A DNA stretch of 64,000 nucleotides from Candidatus Omnitrophota bacterium (GCA_043805415.1 JAZDHZ010000033.1:89600-153599), one strand, 5' to 3'. Positions 6,508 to 33,982 are shown, numbered from the stretch's first letter. Program-made: numbers and translations. The notes: generated by a model not told the origin, from the letters alone.

Positions 6508-6509
6508 AA

Positions 6510-6628
6510 GGACACCAGGACACCAGGTCACAAGGACGCAAGAGCAGTTATGAATTACGAATGATGAGTTACGAGTTAAAAGCAGGAAAAGCAAAGAACT
6601 AAAACAGTTCATAAAGTCAAAGATAAAG
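6510..6628. repeat. mosaic tandem-oligomer 3'-UTR element, copy A
   Basis: Starts 3 nt after the nadE stop. Octamers GGACACCA GGACACCA GGTCACAA GGACGCAA (6510-6541). Heptamers AGTTATG AATTACG AATGATG AGTTACG AGTTAAA (6546-6580). Then AGCAGGAAAAGCAAAGAACTAAAACAGTTCATAAAG, which is shared with copy C. Confidence 0.85.
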
Positions 6629-6688
6629 ATGTTTAGAAGGGCAAAAAGGAATTTGGTGTTAGTAACGGGAAAGGAAAGGTTTTAAATC

Positions 6689-8110
6689 ATGAAGAAAGTG
6701 GTTTTTTATATCATGGCGGGCGGTGAGGGAATGAGACTTTGGCCTTTGAGCCGGGCCAGTTTTCCTAAACAGCTGCATCATTTATTAGGAGACAGTTCTT
6801 TATTGCAGCAGTCGATTGAACGGGTTTTAAAAATCAGTGATCCGAAAAATATCATGATCGGCACAAGAGATGATTTGTATTTTTCCATACAAGACCAGTG
6901 GAAAAAAATGAACTTAAAATGTGAGCCCTGGCTTTTGCTGGAACCAATGAGCCGCAATACCGCGCCAGCCATTGCTCTGGCCTGTCACGCGGCCCGTGAG
7001 CGTTTTGGCGAAGATGTGATTATTGTGACTTTAGCTTCGGATCACGCGATCAAAGATGAAAAACGGTTTCATCAGCTGCTTAAAACCGGGATAAAAATAG
7101 CGGAACAGGGCAATATAGTTACTTTTGGCATAGTCCCCACATATCCGGAGACGGGATATGGTTATATTAATGTGGGTAAGCAGATTGAAAAAGATGTTTT
7201 TCAGGTAGCGGCATTTAAAGAAAAACCCAGCATTGACATTGCTAAAAAATATCTTAAAACCAAAAAATATCTTTGGAATAGCGGAATGTTTGTGTTTGAT
7301 ACAAAAGTTATTGCTGATAATATGGAAAAATTCGCTCCGGATGTCTGGAAGGTGAGTAAGAAAGTATGGGACAAACGAATTGAAAATAAAGACAAAATCG
7401 GATTTGATAAAAAACAATTTGAAAGTTTTCCCTCGATTTCAATTGATTTCGCGGTTATGGAAAAAGCGCCAAAGCGGGCAGTGATCAAAGCGGATTTTCA
7501 ATGGTGTGATGTGGGCTGCTGGCATATGCTGCATCAGATATCTAAAAAAGATAAAGATAATAATGTTTTATCCGGAGATATATCTACTGTGGATACGTAT
7601 AATTCGTTTATTAAAAGCGAAAAAAGATTTGTGGCCACAGTGGGAATAAATAATCTGGTGGTTATTGATACCCCGGATGCTCTGCTTATTTCTGATAAAG
7701 ATCGTTCGCAGGATGTAAAGACAATTGTCAGCAGGCTAAATGAGAAACAGTCATCTCTGACCAAATTTCATACAACAGTTTACCGTCCCTGGGGTAAGTA
7801 TACGGTACTGGAGGAAGGCCCATTTTATAAAATTAAAAGAGTAGTGGTTAATCCTAAACAGCAGCTATCTTTACAAAAACATTTAAAACGCAGTGAGCAT
7901 TGGGTGGTAGTCTCAGGCACAGCCAGAATAATTTGCGGGGATAATTCAATTCTGCTTAAAGCAAATGAAAGTGTGTTTATTGCTAAAGGCCGCAAACATA
8001 GAATTACTAATCCCTATTCTAAGCCGGTTACAATTATCGAAGTTCAGACAGGCGGATATTTGGAAGAAGATGATATTATCCGGTTTGAGGATAAGTATGA
8101 AAGAAAATAA
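6689..8110 (+). CDS. manC: mannose-1-phosphate guanylyltransferase / mannose-6-phosphate isomerase
   Basis: N-terminal nucleotidyltransferase motif AGGEGMRLWPLSR and a C-terminal cupin (RPWGKY...EHWVVVSG...HRITNP); 473 aa. Confidence 0.85.
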   Translation: MKKVVFYIMAGGEGMRLWPLSRASFPKQLHHLLGDSSLLQQSIERVLKISDPKNIMIGTRDDLYFSIQDQWKKMNLKCEPWLLLEPMSRNTAPAIALACHAARERFGEDVIIVTLASDHAIKDEKRFHQLLKTGIKIAEQGNIVTFGIVPTYPETGYGYINVGKQIEKDVFQVAAFKEKPSIDIAKKYLKTKKYLWNSGMFVFDTKVIADNMEKFAPDVWKVSKKVWDKRIENKDKIGFDKKQFESFPSISIDFAVMEKAPKRAVIKADFQWCDVGCWHMLHQISKKDKDNNVLSGDISTVDTYNSFIKSEKRFVATVGINNLVVIDTPDALLISDKDRSQDVKTIVSRLNEKQSSLTKFHTTVYRPWGKYTVLEEGPFYKIKRVVVNPKQQLSLQKHLKRSEHWVVVSGTARIICGDNSILLKANESVFIAKGRKHRITNPYSKPVTIIEVQTGGYLEEDDIIRFEDKYERK

Positions 8111-8130
8111 TTTAGCGTAAAGCGTTTAGG

Positions 8131-8235
8131 AAAAGCAGTTATGAATTATGAGTTATGAGTGATGAGTTAAAAAATAAAAGGAATTAGCTATTGACCATTG
8201 ATTTGGTGATACGCGATACGCACGACGCAATCCAG
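8131..8235. repeat. mosaic tandem-heptamer 3'-UTR element, copy B
   Basis: Lies 21 nt after the manC stop. AGTTATG AATTATG AGTTATG AGTGATG AGTTAAA (8137-8171), CTATTGA CCATTGA module, then GATACGC GATACGC ACGACGC AATCCAG (8208-8235). Confidence 0.85.
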
Positions 8236-8245
8236 AAAATAAAAA

Positions 8246-8275
8246 TTGGCATATTTTTATTAAATAGGGTATAAT
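8246..8275 (+). promoter_or_regulatory. sigma70-type promoter with no ORF behind it
   Basis: TTGGCA (8246-8251), 18-nt spacer, consensus TATAAT (8270-8275). Confidence 0.4.
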
Positions 8276-8281
8276 TATTAT

Positions 8282-8581
8282 GTAATATGAGTACAACTAA
8301 ATTTCCAAAATGCGATTTATGTTGTAACCATAATTAGAAAAAGGCAAACCTCACGTGAGTGGGGGGCGTCCCAAGAGTCGGATGGATTAAGTAAGACAAA
8401 GGGACCTTGAAAAAAAAGAACGCTATAATATATAAAATATTTTTCAAGGCAAAGCTACGGGTCTAAAAGGGAAAATTGTAAATGGATTTTATTTGTTTTC
8501 AAGTTAGATAGCCGGGCTACCGAAAAATGGTGAACAATATTCCAACCGAACTATCTGGGACAGATGGATCGGTTTTATTTT
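8282..8581 (+). ncRNA. candidate ~300-nt non-coding RNA of unknown family
   Basis: Bounded by the promoter at 8246-8275 and the terminator at 8546-8581, with no credible ORF between. It contains a perfect 10-bp hairpin, CCTTGAAAAA (8405-8414) / TTTTTCAAGG (8440-8449). It also has a 6-bp stem capped by a GNRA loop: CCTCAC-GTGA-GTGGGG (8349-8364). I could not assign a family by eye. Confidence 0.25.
8546..8581 (+). terminator. intrinsic terminator inside the manC-pilin intergenic region
   Basis: CCGAACTATCTG (8546-8557) pairs with CAGATGGATCGG (8561-8572) with one mismatch and one G-U pair. TTTTATTTT follows. Confidence 0.5.
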
Positions 8582-8756
8582 ATATAGGGTTTGAAAATGC
8601 AGAAGGCAATTAATATCTGCAGAAAGGAGGCGCAACTGATAAAATAAACCTGCTGATTTTAGGTTTGTGGGGTCAGAAGCAGTCCTATAATCAGTCAAAC
8701 TGGGAATAAACAACATGGATAAAATTTTAGAGCGAAATTCTTGGGGAAGAATTAGC

Positions 8757-8785
8757 TTGACAGGAAAACATTGTTTTGATAAATA
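8757..8785 (+). promoter_or_regulatory. near-consensus sigma70 promoter of the orphan pilin gene
   Basis: TTGACA (8757-8762), 17-nt spacer ending in TGA (extended -10), TAAATA (8780-8785). GGAGGA Shine-Dalgarno lies before the ATG at 8811. Confidence 0.55.
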
Positions 8786-8810
8786 TATATATATAACTGG
8801 AGGAAATAAA

Positions 8811-9224
8811 ATGAATAGAAAAGGTTTTACACTTGTTGAACTTTTGATGGTAGTTATCATCATTGGTATATTGGTAACGTTGGCTGTTCCAAGTTATTAT
8901 AAGTCAATTGAAAGAGCAAAAGGCGGTAAAGCAAAATCATCTTTACGTACTATCACTAATGCTCAAATACAGTATAGAGCGCTTAATGATACATATGTTA
9001 ATGGTGCTGATTTAACTTTATTAGCTGATGTTGATTTGCCTGCGGAATTACAGGATGGAGCTACTGGAGATGGAGATTGGACATATGCATGTACTTCTAC
9101 TGATATCACTGCGGATGTTCTTACTACAGCTACAAGAAATCTTGGGCCTTATGCTGGTGATACTGTAACAATGGATCAAGATGGCTTCTATATTAATGTT
9201 GATGCCCATCAAGAATGGAACTAA
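8811..9224 (+). CDS. type IV pilin-like protein (prepilin-type N-terminal cleavage/methylation domain)
   Basis: MNRKGFTLVELLMVVIIIGILVTLAVPSYY is a class III signal peptide (G/FTLVE). I moved the start from the listed 8715 to the ATG at 8811 because of the GGAGGA Shine-Dalgarno and the promoter at 8757. Paralog of the pilin at 31225. Confidence 0.8.
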   Translation: MNRKGFTLVELLMVVIIIGILVTLAVPSYYKSIERAKGGKAKSSLRTITNAQIQYRALNDTYVNGADLTLLADVDLPAELQDGATGDGDWTYACTSTDITADVLTTATRNLGPYAGDTVTMDQDGFYINVDAHQEWN

Positions 9225-9265
9225 GAATTATCTAGTATGACAGAGAAAGTTATTTAAAGATGATG

Positions 9266-9319
9266 CCACTGATTTATTCGTTTAAAGATTTATTAAATGA
9301 ATAAATCAGTGGTTTTTTT
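9266..9319 (+). terminator. intrinsic terminator after the orphan pilin
   Basis: Perfect 14-bp stem CCACTGATTTATTC / GAATAAATCAGTGG followed by TTTTTTT. Confidence 0.8.
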
Positions 9320-9380
9320 AAACTTATCGAAAGTGTTTGTTTAGTTAGGGGTTTAACGAATTAATTGAGGAGGCGAAATA

Positions 9381-10487
9381 ATGCGGATAATTGCGGTAGC
9401 TAATCAAAAAGGCGGTTGCGGTAAAACAACGACATCAATTAATTTATCTGCTTGTTTAGCCGCGCTTAAAAAAAATGTTTTGTTAATAGACTTAGATCCA
9501 CAGGGACACGCGAGTTTGGGGTTAAATATCCAGCCGCAGGATTTATCAAAAACCATATATAATGTATTGACCACAGATAGCGAAGCCAAATTCCGGCTTG
9601 ATGAAGTTATTATCCCTATATCTGAAAATCTTGATCTGGCTCCGGCAAATATTTTGTTATCCGCGATTGAGCAGGAACTGTCTGGAAAACCAGAAAGAGA
9701 AGCAAAATTATTTCAAGCAATATCTTTAATGGTAAGTAAAAAAACATATGATTATGTAATTATTGATTGCTCTCCAAGTTTGGGTCTTTTGACTTTTAAT
9801 GGATTGCGTGCTGCTACTGAACTGATTGCTCCGGTGGACACTGGATTTTTCTCTTTGCATGGCATAAGCCGTTTACTGGAAACTGTCAATCTTATTGATA
9901 AACGCTTGAATTGTCAGATAAAAGTAAAAGCATTGATCACAATGTTTGATTCCAGAACTAAATTTTCCCATGAAGTAAAAGACGAAATTTATAAATATTT
10001 TTCAGGCAATGTTTTTGAAACAGTAATTCATAATAATGTTAGAGTAAAAGAATCTTCAAGCTATGGGGTACCTGTCGCGGCTTATGATAAGCGCTGCCGA
10101 GGGGCACAAGATTACAGCGCATTAGCCAATGAAGTTGAATCTCCGATGAGCAAGGAAAAAGCTAAAGATAAAACCAGCAGCGCTTCTGAGAAAATAACAT
10201 CTTTTATTCAGGAAGTACAGCAGGTCAAAAAAGGCACAGTAGTTACTTTTAATTCTCTGGACGCGAAAAATGTTGAAATTGCCGGTGATTTTAATAACTG
10301 GGTTAGTTCGGTTGATACTAAACTTGAACGGATTGATAATGGTGTATGGGCTAAAGTGATTCATCTTAAACCCGGTGCTTATAAATATAAATTTGTTGTT
10401 GATGGACAATGGATAACTGATCCCAATAATCCTAAGCTGGAAATTGACGAAGTAGGTAATAAAAATTCGATTTTAGAAGTTAAATAA
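9381..10487 (+). CDS. ParA/Soj-family ATPase fused to a C-terminal AMPK-beta-type glycogen-binding (CBM48) domain
   Basis: Deviant Walker A NQKGGCGKTT, A' LLIDLDPQG, Walker B YVIIDCSPS. The C-terminal ~85 aa are VVTFNSLDAKNVEIAGDFNNW...LKPGAYKYKFVVDGQWITDPNNP...GNKNSILEV. This aligns by eye with the rat AMPK beta1 CBM (VYLSGSFNNW...EGEHQYKFFVDGQWTHDP...NNIIQV). GAGGAGG Shine-Dalgarno. Confidence 0.8.
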   Translation: MRIIAVANQKGGCGKTTTSINLSACLAALKKNVLLIDLDPQGHASLGLNIQPQDLSKTIYNVLTTDSEAKFRLDEVIIPISENLDLAPANILLSAIEQELSGKPEREAKLFQAISLMVSKKTYDYVIIDCSPSLGLLTFNGLRAATELIAPVDTGFFSLHGISRLLETVNLIDKRLNCQIKVKALITMFDSRTKFSHEVKDEIYKYFSGNVFETVIHNNVRVKESSSYGVPVAAYDKRCRGAQDYSALANEVESPMSKEKAKDKTSSASEKITSFIQEVQQVKKGTVVTFNSLDAKNVEIAGDFNNWVSSVDTKLERIDNGVWAKVIHLKPGAYKYKFVVDGQWITDPNNPKLEIDEVGNKNSILEVK

Positions 10488-10507
10488 AAAAACTAGGATT
10501 ATGGTTT

Positions 10508-11425
10508 ATGAATAAATTAAAGAAGTTGGGTAAGGGATTAGAAGACATTTCCTATTTGTTTCTTTCTCCGGAGCAAGAAGATACTATTCAAGAAGAGTCC
10601 ATGGCTGAAAAAAAGAAAATTTTAACTGAAACTATTGAGATTACGACAAAAAACATTTGTTTAATCGGCAATAGCCATGATTCGCGAGATGCTTTTTTAG
10701 TGATTAATTTATCATTAGCTTTGGCTAGACTGGGGATGCGTATCGCGGTAGTTGATATGGATGAGAAGCTTCCTTGTCTAAATTTTTTATTAGGAAAAAG
10801 CGCTAACAATGGATCGCAAAATAATGATCAGGAAATTGTTCGCCAAGGGCCTTTTGGCGTAAAGCTGGCAGGGCTAAATGAGTCTCTGCTTGAAAATATG
10901 TTGGTTGATTCTGTTGCTAGAAAAACAATTATGCTGGAACTGAAAAAAATGGAAGAAGAAGTTGATCTTGTGCTGATTAGTGTATCACAAGATAGCCTTT
11001 ATTATATGAATCCATTGCTTAGAAAATCAATAGAAGAATTTCTAGTTTTTGTTTCTCCGGATAAAAACTCAATGCTTAATTCTTATAAAGTTGTAAAAAC
11101 CATTTTTTCTAATAACCCGGTTGCTAAAATTGGTACGATTATAACTGATATTGAACACATGTATGAAATTGACGCGGTGTTTAATAAAATGTTTTCCGCG
11201 GTAAAGAAATTTCTGGTTAAAGAGCTGTATAAATATGGATTTCTTTTTAAACTAAAACAGGAAATTAATAACAACGCGAATATCGCTTCTTTTTATGACG
11301 CGGATTTGACGGCTTGCATCTCAAATATCGCGCAGATTATTATATTGCGCTTGAACCTTGCGGAAAATGTTAAATCAAGCGGGGAATTATTTAAAAATGT
11401 TTTTAATGAGTTTGGGATAAATTGA
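10508..11425 (+). CDS. MinD/ParA-fold pseudo-ATPase with ParB-N-terminus-like peptide
   Basis: The region ICLIGNSHDSRDAFLVINLSLALARLGMRIAVVDMDEKLPCLNFLLG aligns with the MinD segment SGKGGVGKTT...[16 protein letters not shown]. The P-loop is replaced by GNSHDSRD, with no lysines. The N-terminus is MNKLKKLGKGLEDISYLFLS. Confidence 0.55.
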   Translation: MNKLKKLGKGLEDISYLFLSPEQEDTIQEESMAEKKKILTETIEITTKNICLIGNSHDSRDAFLVINLSLALARLGMRIAVVDMDEKLPCLNFLLGKSANNGSQNNDQEIVRQGPFGVKLAGLNESLLENMLVDSVARKTIMLELKKMEEEVDLVLISVSQDSLYYMNPLLRKSIEEFLVFVSPDKNSMLNSYKVVKTIFSNNPVAKIGTIITDIEHMYEIDAVFNKMFSAVKKFLVKELYKYGFLFKLKQEINNNANIASFYDADLTACISNIAQIIILRLNLAENVKSSGELFKNVFNEFGIN

Positions 11426-11432
11426 GGCTGTT

Positions 11433-12128
11433 ATGACAACGATATTTCACAACGCGCAAATTAATAAAGAAAAACTCAGACAGATTATTTTAAAAAATCC
11501 GCAATCTCTGCTCGCGGGATTAAGTTTTATTGATTTAGAGATGGCTACGGATGAGTCTGGAGTCATTGATTTCTTAGGAGTGGATATAACTGGGCGCATG
11601 GTGGTTGTGAATTTTGATACCCAGGCTAATGACCAGATGCTCATAGAAATATTGTCTCAAATTCAATGGCTCAAAAAAAATGAAGGATTAATCAAAAGGT
11701 TATTTTTTAGTGAGAGCGTGGATTTTGAACAAGCGCCTCAAATGCTTTTGGTTTGTCCTGTTTTTTCCAATAAAATCCAATCAGCGGTAAAACAATTGAC
11801 GGATAAAGATATAAAACTTTTAAAATTTAAATATATTGTCTCAAACGCTGATGACGCGATAATCTTTGACGAGGTATTTTCCAGTATAAATTCAGCCTCC
11901 GCGCCAGCTTTAAAAACTCAACTATCAACTGACCGGGAAAGTATAATGGTTGATCGCGCTGCTTTAACCAAGCACGCGCCGCTAATTAAAAAGACGGTAT
12001 CAGAAATAAGTGAAGACGCGAAAAAAGAACAATCTCCCCTATATGATGTGATTACTCTTACGCCGGAAGAGATTACGGAATTCATGGATTTTAATATAGC
12101 CTTGGCACAGAGCCAAGCAGCTGATTAA
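11433..12128 (+). CDS. hypothetical protein, N-terminal NucS/DUF91-like (PD-(D/E)xK-fold-like) region with degenerate active site
   Basis: SGVIDFLGVDITGRMVVVNFDT resembles the G-x-I-D-L-L-x-x-D-x-x-G-x-x-V-V-V-E-x-K core of NucS-type nucleases. Here the E-x-K reads N-F-D. Acidic C-terminus. The start lies 8 nt after the previous gene, with a GAGG Shine-Dalgarno. Confidence 0.3.
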   Translation: MTTIFHNAQINKEKLRQIILKNPQSLLAGLSFIDLEMATDESGVIDFLGVDITGRMVVVNFDTQANDQMLIEILSQIQWLKKNEGLIKRLFFSESVDFEQAPQMLLVCPVFSNKIQSAVKQLTDKDIKLLKFKYIVSNADDAIIFDEVFSSINSASAPALKTQLSTDRESIMVDRAALTKHAPLIKKTVSEISEDAKKEQSPLYDVITLTPEEITEFMDFNIALAQSQAAD

Positions 12129-12231
12129 GAATAAAACTCTAACCGATTATATAGCTGATCAAATCCTAAATTAAAACCTGCCTGATAATGATTATTAAAT
12201 TTACTACGCAAGTTCTTAGAGGTGAGAAAAT

Positions 12232-12987
12232 ATGCAAGGTGTAAATAGATCATCATCGATCTATAAAATAAATAATTTACTTCCAAACAATATTATATCC
12301 GCTTTTTCCATAGGGAAATTAAATTATGATTATCGTGCTGGGAATGAAAGTGAAGTTCTAAAAAATAGAAAAGATTTTTTTTATCAAGCAGGACTTGCGC
12401 TTGATACTGCTGTTTTTCCCCAACAAGTTCATAAAGCAAACATTCTAAAGGTTGAGCAAAAAGACAAAGGACGTGGCGCGTTTTCTTTCGCGCAGGGCAT
12501 CCCCCAAACAGACGCGTTGATAACTAACGCGAAAGGGATCGCGCTCTGCCTGCTTAGCGCTGATTGTTTGCCGATTATTTTCTATGAAGCAAATGGCAGG
12601 GCAATTGGGATCGCGCATGCCGGATGGCGGGGAATACACGCGGGGATAATTGAAAAAACAATCTTGGCCATGGCCAATGAATTCGCGATTAATCGCGAAG
12701 ATATTAAAGCGTTTTTTGGCCCGGCGATAGGGAGCTGCTGCTATGAAGTTGGCCCTGAGTTTTTAGATATTTTTCCTGAGAATATTAGCGCGCGAAATAA
12801 TAAAACATACCTGGATATTAAAAGCTTAGCTCGGATAAAATGTCTTAGTTCTGGGATTTTTCAGGATTCAATAAATGACGTATCTATTTGTACCAAATGC
12901 AGTAATGACACATTTTTCTCTTATAGATCCGGAGATAATCTCAATCGCCTAATCAGTATTGTGGCTATTGGTGAGCAATGCGGATAG
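12232..12987 (+). CDS. pgeF: YfiH/PgeF-family (DUF152, laccase-domain) protein
   Basis: Family motifs QVHKANI, LSADCLPIIF, GIAHAGWRG and C-terminal CTKC...FFSYR; 251 aa. Confidence 0.8.
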   Translation: MQGVNRSSSIYKINNLLPNNIISAFSIGKLNYDYRAGNESEVLKNRKDFFYQAGLALDTAVFPQQVHKANILKVEQKDKGRGAFSFAQGIPQTDALITNAKGIALCLLSADCLPIIFYEANGRAIGIAHAGWRGIHAGIIEKTILAMANEFAINREDIKAFFGPAIGSCCYEVGPEFLDIFPENISARNNKTYLDIKSLARIKCLSSGIFQDSINDVSICTKCSNDTFFSYRSGDNLNRLISIVAIGEQCG

Positions 12988-13038
12988 ATAGCAATTTCCG
13001 GCTTAGGGAGCTATTTTTTATTTTGACTAATTATCTGC

Positions 13039-13067
13039 TTGACATTTATATGTATCTGTAGTAATTT
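13039..13067 (+). promoter_or_regulatory. sigma70-type promoter of the K/A-repeat DUF4912-like gene
   Basis: TTGACA (13039-13044), 17-nt spacer, TAATTT (13062-13067). These are the same hexamers as the promoter at 3458. Confidence 0.5.
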
Positions 13068-13113
13068 CTTTAAATAGATAATATCTTTTAAATTAACTAA
13101 AAAATTGAAAAAT

Positions 13114-14988
13114 ATGACAAAAAAAATAAGTTTCAAAAAACAAGCAAAAGCTAAAAATACTGTTGCGAAGAAAATTAAAACAGTAGAAAAAAAAGCTTTA
13201 AAAATCAAGGTTGTGAAAACTGCGAAGCCTGCGCGCAAAAAATTAGGTAAGGGCTTGGAAGATATCTCAACCTTGTTTTTGTCTGATATTAAAAAAGACG
13301 CGGTAATTGCTAAGAAAAAAACAATAAAATCCGCGGCTAAAAAAAGTGTAATGCCAAAGGTTAAAAAAGTAAAAAGCGCAAGTGTTAAGACATTAGGCAT
13401 TGCTATAAAAAAATCTCCTAAAAAAATCATTGCAAAGGTTGCTAAAAAACCAGCGGCAGCAAAGGAAATCGTTGCTAAGACTATTGCAAAGGTTGAAACA
13501 AAACCAGCAGTATTAAAGGAAATCGTTGCGCATAAGACTATTGCAAAGGTTGAAACAAAACCAGTGGCAGCAAAGGAAATCGTTGCGCATAAGACCATTG
13601 CAAAGGTTGAAACAAAACCAGCAGTATTAAAGGAAATCGTTGCGAATAAAACTATTGCCAAGGTTGAAAAAAAGGCAACTGCAGTAAATGATAATGTTCC
13701 TAAAAAAACTGTTGCTAAACTTGCTAAAAAAATAGCTGTAGTAAAGGAAAGTATCCCGGAAAAAGTAATCGCGCGTGTTGATGCGAAATTAGACGCGGCA
13801 AAGGATAAAAATCCTGAGAAAACTATGGCTTTAACTGATAAAAAAACTGTAAAAGAGACAACAGGTAAAACACTTGAAAAAATTGCAGTAAAACAAGAAG
13901 AAGCAAAACAAGCAACTTCCAAACCAATTATGAAAATAACAGAGGTGGTAGGGATGGGAACGTTAAAAAAGTCTTCGAAAGCGGTTAAAAAACCAAAGCA
14001 GGATAAACCAGCAGAAAAAAAGAGTACTAAAACAAAAGAGAATAAAAAAACACAAACCTTAGGCCCAATCAGTGATCTGAAGACTTTGTTTAAGAAGAGA
14101 AAAACAGCCGGATTAACTGTTGAGCCGCAGAATATTCAAACAGAGCAAGTTATTGAGGATAGCAAATTTTTTGTTAGTAAGGAAACTGTAAGTCGGATCG
14201 CGGAAGATGAATTTTGTGATTTGCCTGAAGGCTACGGTGATAATAGAATTGTTATTCAGGTTAGGGATCCGTATTGGTTATTTGCTTATTGGGAAGTTTC
14301 TCAGAGAAAATTAAGTTCAGTTGTGGAGAAATATGGTAGTGCTATCCATAACGCAAAAAGAGTACTACGGGTTCATGATATTACATCGGTTGCATTCAAT
14401 GGAAAGAATTCAAACAGTTTTTTTGATATAGCGATTAATGATGTTGCCAAGAACTGGTATGTAAATGTCGGCAATCCTGGGAGAAGTTATTGTATTGATC
14501 TGGGGCTTGTCTTAGCTGATGGGCGTTTTGTCGTGTTTGCTCGTTCAAATTTTGTGACAACTCCGATTGATGGCCCAAGTCTAATAACTGATGAAGAGTG
14601 GATGATTGTTGAAGATGATTTTAACAAGCTTTATGGATTATCTGCTGGATTGGGGATTGGCCTGAGTTCCGGAGAGTTGAGAAGACAAATAAAAACAAAG
14701 ATGAAGAATTTATCATCAGGGATATTGAGTTCACCTGGGGTGACAACAGTGTCTCCGCGTCGTAATTTTTGGATGGTTGTCAATACTGAGCTAATAGTTT
14801 ATGGAGCAACTCAACCAGGTTCTGAACTTACAGTGCAGGGAAAACCGATTAAATTAAATGAAGATGGAACATTTAGTCTTCGTTTTGCCTTGCCTGATGG
14901 AGAGCAGGTCATTCCGGTTCGGGCGGTTTCTCCGGATAAGGTTGAAGAACGGGTAATTACTCCTGTGGTCAAAAAAAACACGGTGTAA
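13114..14988 (+). CDS. Lys/Ala-rich histone-H1-like repeat protein with ParB-like peptide and C-terminal DUF4912-like domain
   Basis: I prefer the ATG at 13114 over the listed TTG at 13105. Residues ~45-60 of the listed ORF are KKLGKGLEDISTLFLS. A K/A/V/P-rich region of ~300 aa follows, with four 18-19-aa tandem repeats. The C-terminal ~250 aa (RIVIQVRDPYWLFAYWEVS ... FWMVVNTELIVYGATQPGSELTVQGKPIKLNEDGTFSLRFALPDG) match my recollection of DUF4912. Confidence 0.65.
   Translation: MTKKISFKKQAKAKNTVAKKIKTVEKKALKIKVVKTAKPARKKLGKGLEDISTLFLSDIKKDAVIAKKKTIKSAAKKSVMPKVKKVKSASVKTLGIAIKKSPKKIIAKVAKKPAAAKEIVAKTIAKVETKPAVLKEIVAHKTIAKVETKPVAAKEIVAHKTIAKVETKPAVLKEIVANKTIAKVEKKATAVNDNVPKKTVAKLAKKIAVVKESIPEKVIARVDAKLDAAKDKNPEKTMALTDKKTVKETTGKTLEKIAVKQEEAKQATSKPIMKITEVVGMGTLKKSSKAVKKPKQDKPAEKKSTKTKENKKTQTLGPISDLKTLFKKRKTAGLTVEPQNIQTEQVIEDSKFFVSKETVSRIAEDEFCDLPEGYGDNRIVIQVRDPYWLFAYWEVSQRKLSSVVEKYGSAIHNAKRVLRVHDITSVAFNGKNSNSFFDIAINDVAKNWYVNVGNPGRSYCIDLGLVLADGRFVVFARSNFVTTPIDGPSLITDEEWMIVEDDFNKLYGLSAGLGIGLSSGELRRQIKTKMKNLSSGILSSPGVTTVSPRRNFWMVVNTELIVYGATQPGSELTVQGKPIKLNEDGTFSLRFALPDGEQVIPVRAVSPDKVEERVITPVVKKNTV
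13447..13671 (+). repeat. in-frame tandem repeat, 54+57+57+57 nt, inside the K/A-rich CDS
   Basis: Units encode KPAAAKEIVAKTIAKVET / KPAVLKEIVAHKTIAKVET / KPVAAKEIVAHKTIAKVET / KPAVLKEIVANKTIAKVEK. The nucleotide copies are near identical. Confidence 0.9.
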
Positions 14989-15020
14989 GTGCTGGAATCC
15001 TTTAACATGCTTTTTAATCG

Positions 15021-15058
15021 CGCCGGAATGAGTATTAACATTCCGGCGTTTTATTTTT
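15021..15058 (+). terminator. intrinsic terminator after the DUF4912-like gene
   Basis: Perfect 10-bp stem CGCCGGAATG / CATTCCGGCG, 8-nt loop, then TTTTATTTTT. Confidence 0.8.
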
Positions 15059-15073
15059 AGCAGTCAAAATCGC

Positions 15074-15102
15074 TTGAATTCTTCAGAGTACTATGCTAGT
15101 AT
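15074..15102 (+). promoter_or_regulatory. possible sigma70 promoter of the GH57 gene
   Basis: TTGAAT (15074-15079), 17-nt spacer, TAGTAT (15097-15102). Confidence 0.3.
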
Positions 15103-15185
15103 AAGAATGTTATTTTAAATTAATTATAAACCTTAAATCTTAAAGGTTTTCCGCAAAAAAGCCACTGGGTATTATAGGGGAAAAT

Positions 15186-16766
15186 ATGGAAAAAGGATAT
15201 CTTTGTATTGTTTTACATGGGCATTTACCTTTTGTTCGTCATCCTGAGCACGCGAATTTCTTAGAAGAAGAATGGCTTTACGAGGCTATAACTGAGACAT
15301 ATATTCCATTGCTTAGTATATTTGATAAGTTGATAGAAGACGGAGTTAATTTTCGGATTACCATGGGTGTATCTCCGCCATTAATATCAATGCTTCTTGA
15401 TCCTTTATTGCAGCATCGTTACATAATGCATATAGAGAAATTAATCGAATTGGCAAGTCGTGAGGTTGAAAGAACAAGATGGCAGCCGGAATTTAATAAG
15501 CTGGCTTTAATGTATCTAAGTAAATTTAATCTTGCCCGATATTATTTTGCCGAAAAACACCGGGGAAATCTTTTAGAGGCATTTAAAAGAATTCAGGATG
15601 CCGGAAGATTAGACATCATGACTTGCGGCGCTACGCATGGGTTTTTCCCATTGATGGATACATGTAGAGATTCAATTCGGGCACAGGTAAGAGCCGCGGT
15701 TGAGCAATATAAAAAAGTATTTCAGCGTCAACCAAAGGGCATTTGGCTGCCTGAGTGTGGATATCATCCTGGTGACGATGAAATCCTGCGGGAAAACGGA
15801 TTAAGATATTTCTTTAGTGATACCCATGGGGTACTTCATGGTACTCCGCGGCCCAAATATGGTGTTTTTGCTCCGGTTTTTTGTAAGTCCGGAGTTGCTT
15901 GCTTTGGACGGGATCTGGAGTCTTCAAAACAGGTTTGGAGCGCTAAGCAGGGATATCCTGGAGATTACAATTACCGGGAATTCTATCGGGATATTGGTTT
16001 TGATCTTGATTTTGATTATATAAAACCGTATATTCATCCAGATGGAATCAGAACAAATACAGGAATAAAATACTATCGGATTACCGGGGAAACCGATAAT
16101 AAACAGCCGTACAATCAAGATGTTGCTATGCAAACAGCGGCATCGCACGCGTCTAATTTTATGTTCAACCGGGAAAAACAGGCGGAGTATGTGAAGGACA
16201 TAATAAAAAGAAAACCGATTATTGTCGCTCCCTATGACGCGGAGTTATTTGGACACTGGTGGTATGAAGGCCCGGATTGGCTTAATTTTTTAATTAGAAA
16301 AATTGCTTTTGATCAAAAAAATATCAAACTTATTTCGCCATCGGATTACTTAGATGAATATCCGAAAAATCAAGTTATTACACCTTCACTTTCCAGTTGG
16401 GGATATAAAGGTTATGCCGAGTTTTGGCTGGAAGGTTCAAATGCCTGGGTTTACAGGCATTTACATAAAGCTTCTGAGCGGATGAGTGAATTAGTTAAGC
16501 TTTATCCCAATGCCGGCGGTTTGACGCTTAGGGCGCTGAACCAGGCTTTGCGTGAAGTATTACTTGCCCAAAGTTCTGACTGGGCTTTTATTATGAAAAC
16601 CGGGACACATGTTTCTTATGCTGTGGATAGAACCAAAAAACATGTGCTTAATTTTACAAAATTATACAATCAGATAAAGGCAGATAATATTAAAGAACAG
16701 TGGCTGAGTGAAATTGAGTCAAAAGATAATATATTTCCTGACATTGATTATCATTACCATTCTTAA
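15186..16766 (+). CDS. GH57-family 1,4-alpha-glucan branching enzyme
   Basis: LHGHLPFVRHPE at the N-terminus, nucleophile region IWLPECGY, acid/base region APYDAELFGHWWYEG. The C-terminal helical region resembles Thermus/Thermococcus GH57 branching enzymes; 526 aa. Confidence 0.8.
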   Translation: MEKGYLCIVLHGHLPFVRHPEHANFLEEEWLYEAITETYIPLLSIFDKLIEDGVNFRITMGVSPPLISMLLDPLLQHRYIMHIEKLIELASREVERTRWQPEFNKLALMYLSKFNLARYYFAEKHRGNLLEAFKRIQDAGRLDIMTCGATHGFFPLMDTCRDSIRAQVRAAVEQYKKVFQRQPKGIWLPECGYHPGDDEILRENGLRYFFSDTHGVLHGTPRPKYGVFAPVFCKSGVACFGRDLESSKQVWSAKQGYPGDYNYREFYRDIGFDLDFDYIKPYIHPDGIRTNTGIKYYRITGETDNKQPYNQDVAMQTAASHASNFMFNREKQAEYVKDIIKRKPIIVAPYDAELFGHWWYEGPDWLNFLIRKIAFDQKNIKLISPSDYLDEYPKNQVITPSLSSWGYKGYAEFWLEGSNAWVYRHLHKASERMSELVKLYPNAGGLTLRALNQALREVLLAQSSDWAFIMKTGTHVSYAVDRTKKHVLNFTKLYNQIKADNIKEQWLSEIESKDNIFPDIDYHYHS

Positions 16767-16770
16767 AAAC

Positions 16771-16968
16771 AAAAGCAGTTATGAATTACTAGTTATGAGT
16801 TACGAGTGAAAAGCAAAGAGCTGAAACAGTTCGTAAAGGCCAAAGGTCAATATTCAATAGCTAATGGTCGATAGAAAAAAAAGAAAGAAAAAAGCATATT
16901 GAATTATTTATCATTTAGTGTTTTTTCGCGATACGCGATACGCGCGACGCAATACAGAAAACAGAAGA
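16771..16968. repeat. mosaic tandem-heptamer 3'-UTR element, copy C
   Basis: Lies 5 nt after the GH57 stop. AGTTATG AATTACT AGTTATG AGTTACG AGTGAAA (16777-16811). AGCAAAGAGCTGAAACAGTTCGTAAAG module, shared with copy A. GGTCAAT ATTCAAT AGCTAAT GGTCGAT (16845-16872). CGCGATA CGCGATA CGCGCGA CGCAATA CAGAAAA CAGAAGA (16927-16968), shared with copy B. Confidence 0.85.
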
Positions 16969-16997
16969 CAAATGTTTTCTGTTTTCTTTAGTTTTTT
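16956..16997 (+). terminator. intrinsic terminator at the end of repeat copy C
   Basis: AGAAAACAGAAGAC (16956-16969) pairs with GTTTTCTGTTTTCT (16974-16987), about 14 bp including one G-U pair. TTAGTTTTTT follows. Confidence 0.65.
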
Positions 16998-17014
16998 GAA
17001 AAGGCGGAGATAAA

Positions 17015-17740
17015 GTGACTGCTAAAAATCAGGTTCCCCAGCATATCGCGATTATAATGGACGGCAATGGACGCTGGGCAAAAAAAAGAAGATTACCGCG
17101 GATTGCCGGCCATAGCCGGGGTGCTGAGGTTATAAAATCTATTGTCCAATCTTGCGATAAAATCGGGGTTAAATATTTAACTCTGTATACCTTTTCTACG
17201 GAAAACTGGAAAAGACCAGAGCAGGAAGTTAACTTTCTTATGCAGCTTTTAAGCGGATTTCTGTTCAAAGAAATCCAGCATTTAGTAAATGAAAATATTA
17301 AATTCTTGACTATTGGCAGGACTGAGCATTTACCGAAAAAAGCGCAGGAAGTTATTGCCTTGGCAAAGGCAAGGACTAAAGATAATACGGGCATAACTTT
17401 GATCCTGGCTTTGAATTACGGAGGCAGATCAGAGATTATTGATGCTGCCTTAAAATTATACGCGGATATTGAAAGCGGCAAAGTTCTTTTAGATAAGGTT
17501 AATGAAAAAGTGTTTTCCAATTATTTGTACACAGCCGGGATTCCTGATCCGGATTTATTGATCCGCACAAGCGGAGAAATGCGTATAAGTAATTTCTTGC
17601 TCTGGCAGTTATCCTACAGCGAGTTTTATGTTACGGAAAAGTTTTGGCCGGATTTTGATGAAACCGAACTCAAACTAGCGATTAATAGCTACCAAAAAAG
17701 AAAACGTCGTTTTGGCGGCATTGCGCATAAAAAAGGATAG
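17015..17740 (+). CDS. uppS: undecaprenyl diphosphate synthase (isoprenyl transferase)
   Basis: HIAIIMDGNGRWA, ENWKRP and LIRTSGEMRISNFLLWQ motifs; GTG start after a GGCGGAG Shine-Dalgarno. Confidence 0.9.
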   Translation: MTAKNQVPQHIAIIMDGNGRWAKKRRLPRIAGHSRGAEVIKSIVQSCDKIGVKYLTLYTFSTENWKRPEQEVNFLMQLLSGFLFKEIQHLVNENIKFLTIGRTEHLPKKAQEVIALAKARTKDNTGITLILALNYGGRSEIIDAALKLYADIESGKVLLDKVNEKVFSNYLYTAGIPDPDLLIRTSGEMRISNFLLWQLSYSEFYVTEKFWPDFDETELKLAINSYQKRKRRFGGIAHKKG

Positions 17741-21887: not shown

Positions 21888-23595
21888 GCTATTGCTGCCT
21901 ACACTTAAAGAAGTGCCCTCAGAGGCAGAGGCGATAAGCCATATCCTAATGATCAGAGCTGGGCTGATCCGCAAGCTTACCTCAGGGGTGTATTCATATT
22001 TACCTGTGGGTTTGCGGGTATTAGCCAAAGTGGAAAATATAATTCGCCAGGAAATGAACAAAAAAGGGGCGCAGCAATTACTCCTGCCGGCGATTCAGCC
22101 TGCTGAATTATGGCAAAAAAGCGGACGGTTTGAAGCTTTAGGGCAAGACATGATAACATTTACTGACCGGCATAAAAAGCTGAATGTTCTTGGCCCGACG
22201 CATGAGGAGGTAATTACCTCGCTTGTAAAAAATGAGGTTAATTCTTACCGGCAGCTGCCGCTTATTTTATACCAAATACAGACAAAATTCCGCGATGAAG
22301 CGCGCCCGCGTTTTGGCATAATCCGTTCGCGTGAATTTATTATGAAAGACGCGTATAGCTTTGATCGAGATATTGAAGGGCTGGGTAAAAGCTATGATAA
22401 AATGTATGATGCTTATTGCCGCATCTTTGAACGCTGCGGATTAAATTTTGTTCCAGTTGAAGCAGATACAGGAATTATGGGTGGCGACGCGTCGCATGAG
22501 TTTATGGTTTTAGCTGACAGCGGTGAAGATAAAATTGTTCAATGTGAAAAATGTTCATATGCCGCAAGCCTAGATAAAGCCGAGTGCCTGCGTCTAAAAG
22601 ACACAGGACACAAGACACAAGACACAAGAAAAGAAGAGCCGGAGGAGGTAAGTACTCCGGGTGTAAGTAGTGTTGAAGATGTTGCTGAATTTCTAAATAT
22701 TCCGATCACTAGATTAATTAAAACAATGATTTATCTGGCTGATGGAAAACCAGTAGCTGTTTTAGTTCGTGGTGACCACGAGATCAATGAAGTAAAATTA
22801 TCCAAAGTATTAAAAGCTGCTCACTTAGAAATGGCTGCTCCTGGGATTATCGAAAAAGTAACAAAAGGGCCGATTGGTTTTAGCGGTCCAGTTGGCTTAA
22901 AGGACATTGATATTTACGCGGATTATGCTATTGAAGGAGCTGGTGATGTAGTTGTTGGAGCAAATAAAGCGGATACGCATACTCAGAATGTTGATATTGT
23001 CCGCGACGTAAAAATCAATAAATGGGCTGATATTCGCAGCATTACAGATAAAGATAAATGTCCGAGATGCGGCGCTGATATTAAAATTAAACTGGCTATT
23101 GAAGTGGGGCATGTTTTTAAATTAGGCGCGAAATATACAGACAGTCTTGGAGCAACTTTTCTTGATGAACAGGGTAAAGCTAATTCAATTATTATGGGTT
23201 GTTATGGGATTGGCGTGACTAGAATTATTGCTGCTTTTATCGAACAGAATTTTGATCAGAATGGAATTATTTGGTCAAAAGAAATAACTCCTTTCCAAGT
23301 CTTAGTCATGCCGCTTAATACAGAAGATCTGCCGAGTATGAAGATTGCTGAATCTATTTATGAACAATTGCTTAAAAAAAATGTCGAGGTACTTTTAGAT
23401 GATCGAAACTTAAGAGCAGGAATAAAATTCAAAGACGCGGATTTAATTGGTATTCCGCTGCAGGTTGTTATTGGGCAAAAGAATATCAGTCGAAATGTTA
23501 TTGAGTTAAAGGTCCGCAGCAGCGGTGAAAGACAAGAAGTTTCTATAGATGAGGCAATTAGTAAGATCATTGATCTGGTTTTAAATAATAACTAA
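21874..23595 (+). CDS. proS: prolyl-tRNA synthetase (bacterial type with INS domain)
   Basis: Class II motifs (FRDEARPRFGIIRSREFIMKDAYSF; GCYGIGVTR) and a C-terminal anticodon-binding domain. ATG at 21874 lies 6 nt after a GGAGG Shine-Dalgarno and overlaps the ispG end by 14 nt. Confidence 0.9.
   Translation: MKWSELLLPTLKEVPSEAEAISHILMIRAGLIRKLTSGVYSYLPVGLRVLAKVENIIRQEMNKKGAQQLLLPAIQPAELWQKSGRFEALGQDMITFTDRHKKLNVLGPTHEEVITSLVKNEVNSYRQLPLILYQIQTKFRDEARPRFGIIRSREFIMKDAYSFDRDIEGLGKSYDKMYDAYCRIFERCGLNFVPVEADTGIMGGDASHEFMVLADSGEDKIVQCEKCSYAASLDKAECLRLKDTGHKTQDTRKEEPEEVSTPGVSSVEDVAEFLNIPITRLIKTMIYLADGKPVAVLVRGDHEINEVKLSKVLKAAHLEMAAPGIIEKVTKGPIGFSGPVGLKDIDIYADYAIEGAGDVVVGANKADTHTQNVDIVRDVKINKWADIRSITDKDKCPRCGADIKIKLAIEVGHVFKLGAKYTDSLGATFLDEQGKANSIIMGCYGIGVTRIIAAFIEQNFDQNGIIWSKEITPFQVLVMPLNTEDLPSMKIAESIYEQLLKKNVEVLLDDRNLRAGIKFKDADLIGIPLQVVIGQKNISRNVIELKVRSSGERQEVSIDEAISKIIDLVLNNN
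22600..22627. repeat. tandem heptamer (GACACAG GACACAA x3) inside proS
   Basis: GACACAGGACACAAGACACAAGACACAA read directly from the sequence. It encodes part of KDTGHKTQDTRKEE. Confidence 0.85.
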
Positions 23596-25389: not shown

Positions 25390-25926
25390 ATGGCTATTAA
25401 AAAGATTATTCCACGCGAAATACAACAGGTTTTTATTGTTGGAGCAGTTATTTTTTTGTTTTTATTTTTTTGGGGTGGGCGTGTTTTGCAAAAATATCAT
25501 GACACGCAAATTATGAAGATAAGAAAACAGCGCAAAAGAGTTGAACTTGAAAATGCGGTTGCTGTGCAATTAAGTAAATTGAAAAAGCTTAAAGAAGAAA
25601 TAACAATTATTAATGAAAGTTCACGCTTTTTGGCTGAAATTGCTAAAATGTCTGGACAGCTTAATTTGAAGATTACTTCGATATCAGCGGTTCCTATTGA
25701 AAAGCGTGATGAGTTTATCAAATTAGGAGTAAGTATGGACATTGATACTACCTATCATGAGCTAGGGGTTTTTATGAGCAAACTTGAGTCAGCAGAACTA
25801 TTTATAACTGTTGAAAAATTAGAAATGATTTCTACTATGGGTAAAAATCCCGCGGAAGCGCCAAGGGTAAATGCCAAAATGAATCTTACAACTTTTGTTT
25901 TAACAGATACTATTTTGGAGAGATAA
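25390..25926 (+). CDS. pilO: type IV pilus assembly protein PilO-like
   Basis: N-terminal TM helix (VFIVGAVIFLFLFFWGG), a coiled coil and a C-terminal ferredoxin-like part. Located between pilMN and pilP/Q. Confidence 0.55.
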   Translation: MAIKKIIPREIQQVFIVGAVIFLFLFFWGGRVLQKYHDTQIMKIRKQRKRVELENAVAVQLSKLKKLKEEITIINESSRFLAEIAKMSGQLNLKITSISAVPIEKRDEFIKLGVSMDIDTTYHELGVFMSKLESAELFITVEKLEMISTMGKNPAEAPRVNAKMNLTTFVLTDTILER

Positions 25927-26474
25927 TGCGTAAAATTCTATTATTAGTTTTAGCATTAATCCTGGTTTTTTCTAGCAGCGATTCTTCTATTGCAGCGCCT
26001 GCTAAAAAGCCAGTTGCTAAAAAACCAGTTGCCAAAAAACCAGTTGCCAAAAAACCAGTTGCTAAAAAAGGCGCTGTTGAAGAAGTTGATAAAGACGTTG
26101 GTAAAGACGTAAAAAAAGAAAAATACAAATCCAGAAGTGAAATTAAATATACTGGTTTTGATTCTAAAAGGGATCCTTTTTCGCCTCCTGAAGTTGTTGT
26201 TAAGATGTTAGAAAAACCGGAAGGGATTCCTGGGGCTGAAATCTTGGCCAAGGATATTAAACTGCCTGCGATTGATTTGCAGGGAATTATTTGGTCAAAA
26301 AATATTCCACAGGTGATTATTAATGGCGGGGTGATGAAGGTGGGAGATTTCATTGAGGAGTTTGAAATAAAAGAAATTCGCAGAACTGGTATAATTTTAT
26401 TTTTTAAGGGCAATGATTATTTTATAAAAATGGTTGGTTATACCCAGAAAAATACGAAAAAGAAAAAAAGATAA
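25926..26474 (+). CDS. PilP-like pilus assembly protein with KKPVA repeats
   Basis: Signal peptide, then (KKPVA)x4, then a C-terminal beta-rich region LQGIIWSKNIPQVIINGGVMKVGDFIEEFEIKEI typical of PilP/GspC-HR-type domains. Sits directly upstream of the secretin gene. Confidence 0.45.
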   Translation: MRKILLLVLALILVFSSSDSSIAAPAKKPVAKKPVAKKPVAKKPVAKKGAVEEVDKDVGKDVKKEKYKSRSEIKYTGFDSKRDPFSPPEVVVKMLEKPEGIPGAEILAKDIKLPAIDLQGIIWSKNIPQVIINGGVMKVGDFIEEFEIKEIRRTGIILFFKGNDYFIKMVGYTQKNTKKKKR

Positions 26475-33742: not shown

Positions 33743-33811
33743 AATGTAATTAATTTAGCACATTTAAGAATATATTGTCAATCATTCTAATTTTATAAGG
33801 TTAAGTGCGGT

Positions 33812-33931
33812 CTAGAATCAATTATTTATGCTCATTCTCGCATTACATCCTGTAATGCTTCGAGGATAAATCTCTGATTTTGCCAGTCCTATCAAAATCA
33901 GGCTTTAAACCCGCCAAAATAATTATTCTAG
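33812..33931. other. ~120-nt three-stem structured element (small RNA or MITE-like), strand unknown
   Basis: The outer inverted repeat is CTAGAAT(C)AATTATTT (33812-33827) / AAATAATTATTCTAG (33917-31), 15 bp with one bulge. It encloses hairpin GCATTAC-ATCCT-GTAATGC (33840-33858). It also encloses hairpin CTGATTTTG-10 nt-CAAAATCAG (33874-33901). Confidence 0.3.
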
Positions 33932-33982
33932 CCCTTGAGTTTTAGGCTTTTCTGTTCGCTTTTTTCCGTCTTCTATTTTCTT

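Follow-up and report, generated by a model that had tools for sequence, protein, structure and literature searches.

Mosaic heptanucleotide repeat lattices behind three genes of a Candidatus Omnitrophota bacterium

Introduction

Tandem heptanucleotide repeats were reportedly described by Mazel et al. in 1990 in Calothrix and Nostoc, i.e., in heterocystous cyanobacteria, as short tandemly repeated repetitive (STRR) sequences, the classical units of which are CCCCAGT, TTGGTCA and CAACAGT. The repetitive extragenic palindromic (REP) units and bacterial interspersed mosaic elements (BIME) of enterobacteria are mosaics of short modules, combined and oriented in various ways, that occupy the space behind genes or between cistrons; some of them serve as terminators or stabilisers. 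REP units are imperfect palindromes mobilised by REP-associated tyrosine transposases (RAYT). This paper concerns three elements built from tandem heptamers (copies A, B and C), which lie behind nadE, manC and the gene of a GH57 branching enzyme in a stretch of 64,000 nucleotides from a Candidatus Omnitrophota bacterium (GCA_043805415.1, JAZDHZ010000033.1:89600-153599), the whole of which is called the window hereafter. A preliminary description, made from the sequence alone, had likened them to STRR arrays and had proposed a transcribed, RNA-level role. The explanation favoured here, with modest confidence, is that A, B and C are STRR-like heptanucleotide repeat lattices that arise by slippage in 7-nt steps, strand switching and copying between loci, and that are transcribed as 3′ spacers.

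Among the tandem repeats of prokaryotic intergenic DNA, heptamers are the most abundant, and the SPADE survey sees "no clear clue" to their function (PMC6344855). Polymerase slippage has been proposed as their cause in a report that also mentions the STRR of heterocystous cyanobacteria and the GGGAATC and GGGGAYT repeats of Xanthomonas and Nostoc (PMC4692102). According to that report and a second one (PMC4679880, citing Mrazek 2007), heptamer repeats lie ~28 nt from the 3′ end of the upstream open reading frame (ORF), compared with 160 nt to the next ORF, and vary in length between related strains. Binding by S1, Csp or CsrA-type proteins has been suggested for the TAACTGA repeats, which occur in marine Beggiatoaceae, Cyanobacteria and Bacteroidetes (PMC4679880).

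Like STRR, which are dispersed over many intergenic regions, the present elements consist of tandem 7-nt units with several unit types adjacent and vary between close relatives, and a Nostoc locus (contig L115; L-numbers denote contigs of relatives and other genomes used for comparison) carries nearly the same string as copy B, AGCAGTTATGAGTTAGGAGTTATGAGTGATGAGTTAAA. The likeness to STRR stands in this broad sense, GAGTTAT and GAGTGAT units being found in the Nostoc locus and in many phyla as well. It does not extend to strict STRR, as the units here are YGARTKA, CGCGATA, AGGACAC(C), TTAGCGN and GGTCAAT and the phylum is Omnitrophota; also unlike STRR, there is a defined five-unit core of constant length and orientation. 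With prokaryotic heptamers in general, the elements share period 7, a mostly intergenic position nearer the upstream ORF, strain variation and occasional copies within ORFs. However, the surveyed heptamers form homogeneous arrays, whereas here successive unit types follow one another in single-register lattices, with blocks common to several loci. The TAACTGA repeats are alike in their scattered phyla, mixed heptamers and 7-nt strain indels, and the reverse-complement unit found here, TAACTCA, differs from TAACTGA by one base; in Beggiatoa, however, they run forward just upstream of start codons, whereas the present arrays lie just downstream of stop codons, which sets them apart from that group (PMC4679880). 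A literature search found no paper linking Omnitrophota with heptamer repeats. The locus is a case, from a new phylum, of the known and unexplained tandem heptamers of prokaryotes.

Three lattices behind stop codons

The three copies were present where they had first been placed (A 6510-6628, B 8131-8235, C 16771-16968), each adjoining the stop codon of a + strand gene: they start 0-21 nt after the stops of nadE, manC and the GH57 gene, and heptads can be read from the next base (Table 1). The proposal that they form a related mosaic family was confirmed by blastn-short, which found common blocks at ~87-94% identity, all in + / + orientation, namely 42 nt at 90% (E 1.7e-9) and 31 nt at 90% between A and C, 32 nt at 94% (E 3e-8) and 30 nt at 93% between B and C, and 39 nt at 87% between A and B; when each copy was compared with the whole window, only the other copies rose above noise. 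The GGTCAAT-type block has opposite orientations in B and C, with a 12-nt exact reverse-complement match between 8183-8194 and 16854-16865. All three copies contain a five-heptad core, GCAGTTA followed by four YGARTKA units, and the core sequence AGCAGTTATGA begins 36 (A), 24 (B) and 8 (C) nt past the stop codon.

Tandem Repeats Finder (TRF) reported period-7 arrays in the copies and a period-8 array heading copy A. The lag-7 self-match, measured over whole elements against dinucleotide shuffles, was 0.551 in copy C (16767-17000) versus 0.284 +/- 0.028 (z 9.4) and 0.547 in copy B (8111-8245) versus 0.284 +/- 0.037 (z 7.0), showing, together with TRF, a 7-nt unit repeated head to tail three times or more, beyond chance. 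The middle of C (16810-16926), in which no array is visible by eye, gave 0.518 versus 0.307 +/- 0.043 (z 4.9). The stepwise drift of units noted in the preliminary description is borne out and keeps to one register. Lattice B begins at the first base past the manC stop and continues in heptads up to the −35 hexamer of the next promoter-like site; lattice C, of 33 heptads, starts behind the GH57 stop codon and extends into an intrinsic terminator. The periodicity of copy A is weaker and mixed (period 8 z 2.4, period 7 z 2.1).

The window has 25 intergenic regions that are 60 nt or longer, and only 3 of them, those of A, B and C, gave a lag-7 signal. As array density, too, was only ~2.4x that of sampled unrelated genomes, the idea that heptads pervade the window was dropped. 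The arrays are mainly intergenic and near the end of the upstream ORF, the exceptions being the linker of proS and a divergent promoter region. As for dispersal, there are three loci and two related arrays in the 64 kb window, and three copies in the metagenome-assembled genome (MAG) MM_PC_MetaG.mb.228. Leaving aside multiples of three, period 7 outnumbers the other array periods, both in this clade and in unrelated genomes.

The closest relatives of the GH57 protein in a homology search are proteins of Candidatus Omnitrophota MAGs, and an exact-protein look-up returned no identical entry on record for it. As judged from this homology, the source organism is Candidatus Omnitrophota and not a cyanobacterium, as the preliminary description had surmised. 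At 37% G+C, short A/T-rich matches are common, and chance similarity or an assembly artefact might be suspected; however, the inter-copy E-values (1e-8 to 1e-9), the lag-7 z of up to 9.4 and the recovery of homologous arrays in contigs assembled separately from two further sequencing runs (L001, L002) refute this, leaving it next to no probability.

Turnover in related strains

Contigs L001 and L002 belong to a strain with a 97% identical GH57 protein, assembled independently from the two runs. In L001, copy B has exactly one extra 7-nt unit (in module 4) compared with the window, the change in copy number between related genomes that had been put forward as a check; its core has the same five units in permuted order, and the leading TTAGCG heptads are missing. 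At the site of copy A, a period-7 AAGACAC array replaces the period-8 AGGACACC array of the window, and module 2 is missing at the orthologous site, where a ParE toxin-antitoxin cassette follows the core. This cassette (L001:1091-1592) consists of a ParE toxin gene and a small upstream partner gene directly behind copy A and is absent from the window. Behind the GH57 gene, L001 and L002 carry wholly different heptads (GCGNTTA, GCTGATA), and both Logan contigs end ~98 nt past the GH57 stop, inside the repeat, as expected if the repeat breaks assembly. The exact 7-nt indel, the unit permutation and the module swap relative to this close strain support the slippage and copying account, and the array-bearing gaps appear to be hot spots of insertion or rearrangement.

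In more distant relatives, at 81-83% identity, the gap between GH57 and uppS carries GAGTAGC with inverted GCTACTC (L003, L120) or GAATAGC-type units (L118), and at 77% (L121) there is no such gap at all. Units of the type that leads copy B occur behind the GH57 gene in L001 and L118, and the manC-pilin gap of L121 holds an ordinary terminator hairpin and no lattice. Overall, relatives at 77-97% protein identity have replacement arrays or none at the corresponding loci. L121, which lacks lattices at the manC and GH57 gaps, has arrays in its ispG-proS gap, i.e., forward (AATCCTA)n at 16624-16659 and near-inverted (TTTAGAG)n at 16756-16794, ~100 nt apart.

Heptads also occur inside a housekeeping gene. 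The window's proS has an in-frame AAGACAC array in a hypervariable linker, and the same linker carries AGACCAA x 4.5 in L121 (17559-17609, lag-7 0.64), GACCACA in L120 (17387-17427, lag-7 0.62) and a weaker array in L003, giving in-frame arrays in four lineages that use only units free of stop codons. The linker of this prolyl-tRNA synthetase is of low complexity; three units make seven codons, and all three unit frames are used. These in-frame arrays of stop-free units argue for a general tendency of the clade, at the DNA level, to generate 7-nt arrays and to retain them at any site that tolerates them. As heptads are also found inside proS and in the divergent promoter region, and as arrays are replaced at the same loci, the term "3′-UTR element" of the preliminary description is a label for location and not yet for role.

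The five-heptad core in Omnitrophota and other phyla

An alignment of 19 Omnitrophota-type copies from the window, L001, five MAGs and two JGI metagenomes gave the core as AAAAGCAG, then Y-G-A-R-T-K-A heptads, then AAAA(G), with positions A3, T5 and A7 of the heptad nearly invariant. Exactly five heptads, counting GCAGTTA as the first, are present in 15 of the 19. The core recurs at at least 17 independent Omnitrophota loci and 15 of 17 independent copies run in the sense of the gene that precedes them on the 5′ side. The modules around the core vary between Omnitrophota copies: there are heptads (GGACGA or GGATGA) and, in copies outside the window only, a CCTCC..GGAGG palindrome and the GTGCTATCCTGAAAWAGGTTGACAG motif. 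The companions of the core in other Omnitrophota, i.e., the CCTGAAAWAGGTTGACAG motif and the TCCTCC..GGAGGA palindrome, are absent from the window.

Several of these companions were observed elsewhere. The motif GTGCTATCCTGAAAWAGGTTGACAG recurs in Omnitrophota intergenic regions (L118, L014, L090, L091, L116, L135); in the GH57-uppS gap of L118 (11620-11990) two inverted copies of it enclose ~330 nt of GC-rich sequence with hairpins, with the look of a miniature inverted-repeat transposable element (MITE). A REP-like palindrome, CCTCCATAGCC TTGG GGCTATGGAGG, stands upstream of the core in L124 and is partly decayed in L126, L129, L135 and L140. In the metagenome contig L140, a (GCATAAA)n array of more than 15 units extends from ~1000 on, downstream of a core copy.

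A pair of unlinked copies from a single MAG (L090, L101) agrees at every position over at least 87 nt (60 nt shown upstream and ~27 nt of core), which, on sequence identity, shows recent copying between loci. The core and its neighbouring modules could also be a miniature, non-autonomous mobile element, resembling REP/BIME, MITE or the small dispersed repeats of Nostoc, that an enzyme acting in trans would insert preferentially just after genes or into existing heptad arrays. This explanation would account for a ~45-nt core at many unlinked loci in several MAGs and metagenomes, for the L090/L101 pair, for AAAGCAG-type heptads on both sides of a TTATGAR block in several copies, for the CCTCC..GGAGG palindrome and GTGCTATCCTGAAAWAGGTTGACAG beside the core in relatives (inverted pair, ~330 nt, L118) and for the ParE cassette inserted beside copy A in L001. 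The copies in the window are, like REP/BIME, mosaics of short modules in gaps behind genes; however, their core is a non-palindromic direct heptad repeat, and A and B have no significant fold, unlike REP palindromes. Furthermore, no terminal inverted repeats or clear target-site duplications surround A, B and C, the only inverted matches being the terminator arms and the inverted module 3, which do not make a MITE. The window also lacks the palindrome and the terminal-inverted-repeat-like motif of relatives, module boundaries shift from copy to copy, which is the pattern of a mosaic and not of a unit element, modules 2 and 4 turned up only in this strain and L001, and no transposase is linked. 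A mobile element is therefore regarded as unlikely, though the sense orientation and fixed length of the core leave some room for it.

For other phyla, contigs were searched with the 17-mer AAAGCAGTTATGARTTA, for which most matches are due to chance (~140 expected). Among the matches listed, the same unit vocabulary was seen in Chitinophagaceae, Flavobacteriaceae, Saprospiraceae, Rhodothermales, Chloroflexota and Terriglobia, as well as in Ignavibacteria, Nitrospiraceae, Elusimicrobia and Nostoc. These arrays often begin 0-7 nt past a stop codon, are often forward and inverted arrays forming hairpins, and have their units in both orientations relative to genes. In 22 viral contigs, (TTATGAG)3 arrays of 3-7 units have varied 5′ flanks; in this unbiased sample, AAAGCAG is ruled out as a universal leader of (TTATGAG)n arrays, and its occurrence outside Omnitrophota was imposed by the search pattern. 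Module 4 (ATACGCRCGACGCAATNCAGAAAA) had no matches in metagenome contigs and module 2 none in viral contigs, giving no evidence of wide dispersal for either. An insulator carrying stop codons in three frames was also considered: TGAGTTA arrays place a TGA at 7-nt intervals on the + strand and a TAA on the opposite one, but CGCGATA and AGGACAC units have no stop codons on either strand, so this is not general.

The constant length and orientation of the core allow it to be read as a possible RNA-level platform, i.e., an unstructured A/U-rich RNA behind the stop codon, bound by protein and controlling stability, termination or translation of the neighbours. In this reading, the core shows NAG/NAA triplets every 7 nt (CAG-UUAU-GAA-UUAC-UAG-UUAU-GAG-UUAC-GAG), read by an oligomeric protein. 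The sense orientation, the five units with invariant A3, T5 and A7, the retention of five units by copy B in both the window and L001 despite unit turnover, and the accessible RNA expected of A and B, which have no significant secondary structure, are all consistent with it. HutP and TRAP operators offer a precedent of triplets at fixed spacing in single-stranded RNA, HutP reading three XAG triplets with 4-nt spacers and thus a 7-nt period (PMC2425495). RNA-binding proteins have been suggested for heptamer repeats by MacGregor (PMC4679880), and deletion of heptamer repeats altered expression of a recO reporter in Nostoc constructs (bioRxiv 10.1101/2022.06.06.494920). The core reads CAG/GAA/UAG/GAG/GAG at a 7-nt period, with one or two triplets NAA rather than NAG. 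HutP sites comprise two groups, each of three triplets, on either side of a terminator within a single operon leader (PMC2425495), whereas A, B and C have no second set, and most flanking arrays (CGCGATA, AGGACACC) are without NAG triplets. The core is moreover lost at orthologous loci in relatives at 77-83% identity, the same units stand both ways round relative to genes in other phyla, and descent from one progenitor can explain orientation and length. No candidate binding protein was found, and no search aimed at one was made. Together, these points make a protein-binding RNA improbable, to about the degree given above for a mobile element.

Terminator, folding and transcription

As had been noticed, copy C ends in an intrinsic terminator made partly of heptads. 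Its hairpin (16956-16987) has 14 pairs and a predicted −17.0 kcal/mol, TTAGTTTTTT following as the T tail, and one G-T pair makes it the better hairpin on the + strand. A stem-loop with a T-run was found in C only, and the fold of the whole of C (z −3.3) is largely due to it; copies A (z −0.85) and B (z −1.26) have no significant fold and no terminator-like site. Rfam, run on the whole window at the gathering threshold, gave two tRNAs only and no family on A, B or C, and E-value searches of 6400-8800 and 16700-17100 gave chance-level matches only on the elements. The elements might accordingly be supposed to be structured 3′ elements, i.e., terminators or REP-like stabilising hairpins from inverted heptad arrays. 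This agrees with the inverted heptads and T-run of C, with its z score and with the pairing of forward and inverted arrays in many copies of other phyla and in L003, L120 and L121; however, it leaves A and B unexplained, and the core is never paired with an inverted copy in Omnitrophota loci, which makes it a very doubtful account of the family.

Since no terminator precedes either, A and B are probably transcribed, as 3′ trailers or intercistronic spacers. The probable transcription of A and B and the mostly sense core speak for the RNA-level role first proposed, but such a function was not established. The evidence points first to a DNA-level repeat-generating process rather than to a locus-specific RNA role.

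Origin of the lattices

In the favoured account of slippage and copying, slipped-strand duplication and deletion in 7-nt steps, combined with point mutation, would give the stepwise drifting units, and occasional strand switching would give inverted arrays and hence hairpins, the terminator of C among them. Block copying between loci, by ectopic recombination or template switching on repetitive microhomology, would make the mosaic; degenerate unit orders common to several loci indicate copying and not independent slippage. Arrays would persist where they are tolerated, i.e., in gaps after stops, in a hypervariable protein linker (stop-free units only) and in a divergent promoter region, and selection would trim the lattices at stop codon, promoter and terminator. 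The last heptads of C may have been co-opted as the GH57 terminator.

Several points weigh against this account. Neutral slippage does not predict a strand bias, such as the sense core in 15 of 17 Omnitrophota copies, nor a fixed length, such as the five heptads in 15 of 19, while the viral arrays range from 3 to 7 units. Orientation and constant length could stem from a single progenitor that spread, by common descent, or from a bias tied to the replication strand; selection on an RNA or DNA function could equally account for them. In addition, the mechanism of inter-locus copying is inferred, not directly observed. The core may also have a sequence-specific role, e.g., protein binding. In its most specific form, such a role would make the 35-nt core (GCAGTTA and four YGARTKA units, with AAAAG flanks) a selected strand-specific platform, as single-stranded RNA or DNA, for an oligomeric Omnitrophota protein, a proposal that we consider quite unlikely.

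An array of DNA sites has also to be weighed, i.e., an operator or centromere-like array with one ribbon-helix-helix dimer per heptad, as in the operators and parS sites of omega2 from inc18 plasmids, where 6-10 unspaced 7-bp units stand in direct or inverted order (PMC4627068). The unspaced direct and inverted heptads of the present copies have this architecture, GTCACA-containing units occur in copy A and, with period 8, in the divergent promoter region, and copy B abuts a promoter-like site. However, omega2 sites overlap promoters and have one conserved unit, WATCACW, whereas here the AGTTATG cores lie behind genes and the unit shifts along a single array (PMC4627068). A DNA site would not be expected to show a bias of orientation with respect to transcription, and no partner protein gene is linked in the window, so that this explanation is given very little weight.

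Gene setting and other features of the window

The positions of the genes and of the parts of each copy are collected in Table 1. The near-copy of C module 3 in another Omnitrophota genome (L014:57) differs by 4 substitutions in 30. The promoter-like site at 8246-8275 is the best match within 6300-17300 and is conserved in L001.

Table 1. Genes, repeat parts and regulatory sites in the window
Feature	Position	Strand	Remarks
nadE (NAD+ synthase)	4858-6507	+	stop codon 6505-6507; upstream of copy A
A leading array, (AGGACACC)-type units, period 8, ~4 units	6508-6543	+	directly after nadE stop; TRF, lag-8 z 2.4
A five-heptad core GCAGTTA TGAATTA CGAATGA TGAGTTA CGAGTTA	6544-6578	+	90% identity to C core over 42 nt
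A module 2 (AAAAGCAAAGAACTAAAACAGTTCATAAAG)	6587-6616	+	also in C, 3 substitutions in 30
manC (mannose-1-phosphate guanylyltransferase)	6689-8110	+	stop codon 8108-8110; upstream of copy B
B leading heptads TTTAGCG TAAAGCG TTTAGGA	8111-8134	+	directly after manC stop
B five-heptad core GCAGTTA TGAATTA TGAGTTA TGAGTGA TGAGTTA	8135-8169	+	TRF, blastn-short, core alignment
B CTATTGA CCATTGA block	8180-8204	+	reverse complement of C GGTCAAT-type module; 12-nt exact match to 16854-16865
B module 4 GATACGC GATACGC ACGACGC AATCCAG AAAA	8208-8239	+	94% over 32 nt versus C
Promoter-like site TTGGCA, 18 nt, TATAAT	8246-8275	+	11/12 match; bounds lattice B on 3′ side, outside repeat
Type IV pilin gene	8715-9224	+	downstream of copy B, promoter-like site and riboswitch candidate
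GH57 1,4-alpha-glucan branching enzyme	15186-16766	+	stop codon 16764-16766; upstream of copy C
C five-heptad core GCAGTTA TGAATTA CTAGTTA TGAGTTA CGAGTGA	16775-16809	+	TRF, blastn-short, core alignment
C module 2 (AAAAGCAAAGAGCTGAAACAGTTCGTAAAG)	16809-16838	+	also in A
C module 3 GGTCAAT ATTCAAT AGCTAAT GGTCGAT AG	16845-16874	+	similar copy in L014:57
C decayed A/T-rich heptads, register unchanged	16875-16926	+	lag-7 0.518, z 4.9 for 16810-16926
C module 4 CGCGATA CGCGATA CGCGCGA CGCAATA CAGAAAA	16927-16961	+	also in B
Intrinsic terminator, inverted heptads AGAAAAC AGAAGAC / GTTTTCT GTTTTCT and TTAGTTTTTT tail	16956-16997	+	14 pairs
uppS	starts 17015		next gene after GH57 / copy C
In-frame (AAGACAC) x 4.6 array in proS, encoding KDTGHKTQDTRK	22598-22632	+	hypervariable linker between conserved blocks
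Period-8 array (TGTCACAA; also written TTGTGACA) x 4	33979-34013	-	lpxB-oxidoreductase operon (-) / lipid A acyltransferase gene (+) divergent region

The divergent promoter region (33743-34065) has a period-8 signal (lag-8 z 3.6), and the unit of its array resembles the GGTCACA units of copy A and L083. The GTCACA core of this unit also resembles the WATCACW heptads bound by omega2-type repressors, and by this analogy the array may be an operator. Nearly all genes of the window are on the + strand, which has a strong and uniform G-over-C skew (~+0.2) in almost every 2-kb bin, the sole dip, at 32-34 kb, coinciding with two − strand genes; owing to this arrangement, orientation relative to transcription and relative to replication are inseparable in the window.

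Between the promoter-like site and the pilin gene, the segment 8334-8525 (+) is a candidate riboswitch of the c-di-GMP-I type with two large insertions, matching the Rfam c-di-GMP-I-GGC model at 29.5 bits (E 2.6e-4), which is under that model's gathering score (59). It is conserved, ahead of the type IV pilin gene, in L001, L003, L120 and L121, and its first hairpin has compensatory changes (CCTCACGTGAGTGGGG / CTTCACGTAAGTGAAG / CCCTGTGAAAACAGGG). Two coding repeats were also observed, a 57/114-nt repeat, x 4-6, at 13416-13750 inside the gene of a DUF4912 protein (13105-14988), and a 15-nt repeat (TGCTAAAAAACCAGT), x 4.7, at 26000-26069 inside the ORF 25926-26474.

Significance

In practice, arrays of this kind break short-read assemblies, as seen in the two Logan contigs that end inside one. 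To what is known of prokaryotic heptamers, the locus adds whole gaps organised as single-register heptad lattices that are bounded exactly by stop codon, promoter and terminator, a five-unit core of fixed length and orientation across genomes, and in-frame heptad arrays kept across the clade in the housekeeping gene proS. These three facts give checkable predictions that separate models of replication slippage, mobility and RNA binding. Should the core be a protein platform, its constant length and sense orientation would reflect function, and it would offer a first tangible lead as to why the intergenic DNA of prokaryotes is dominated by tandem heptamers; in a stronger version of that reading, dedicated machinery, and not polymerase slippage, would write heptads behind stop codons in several phyla.

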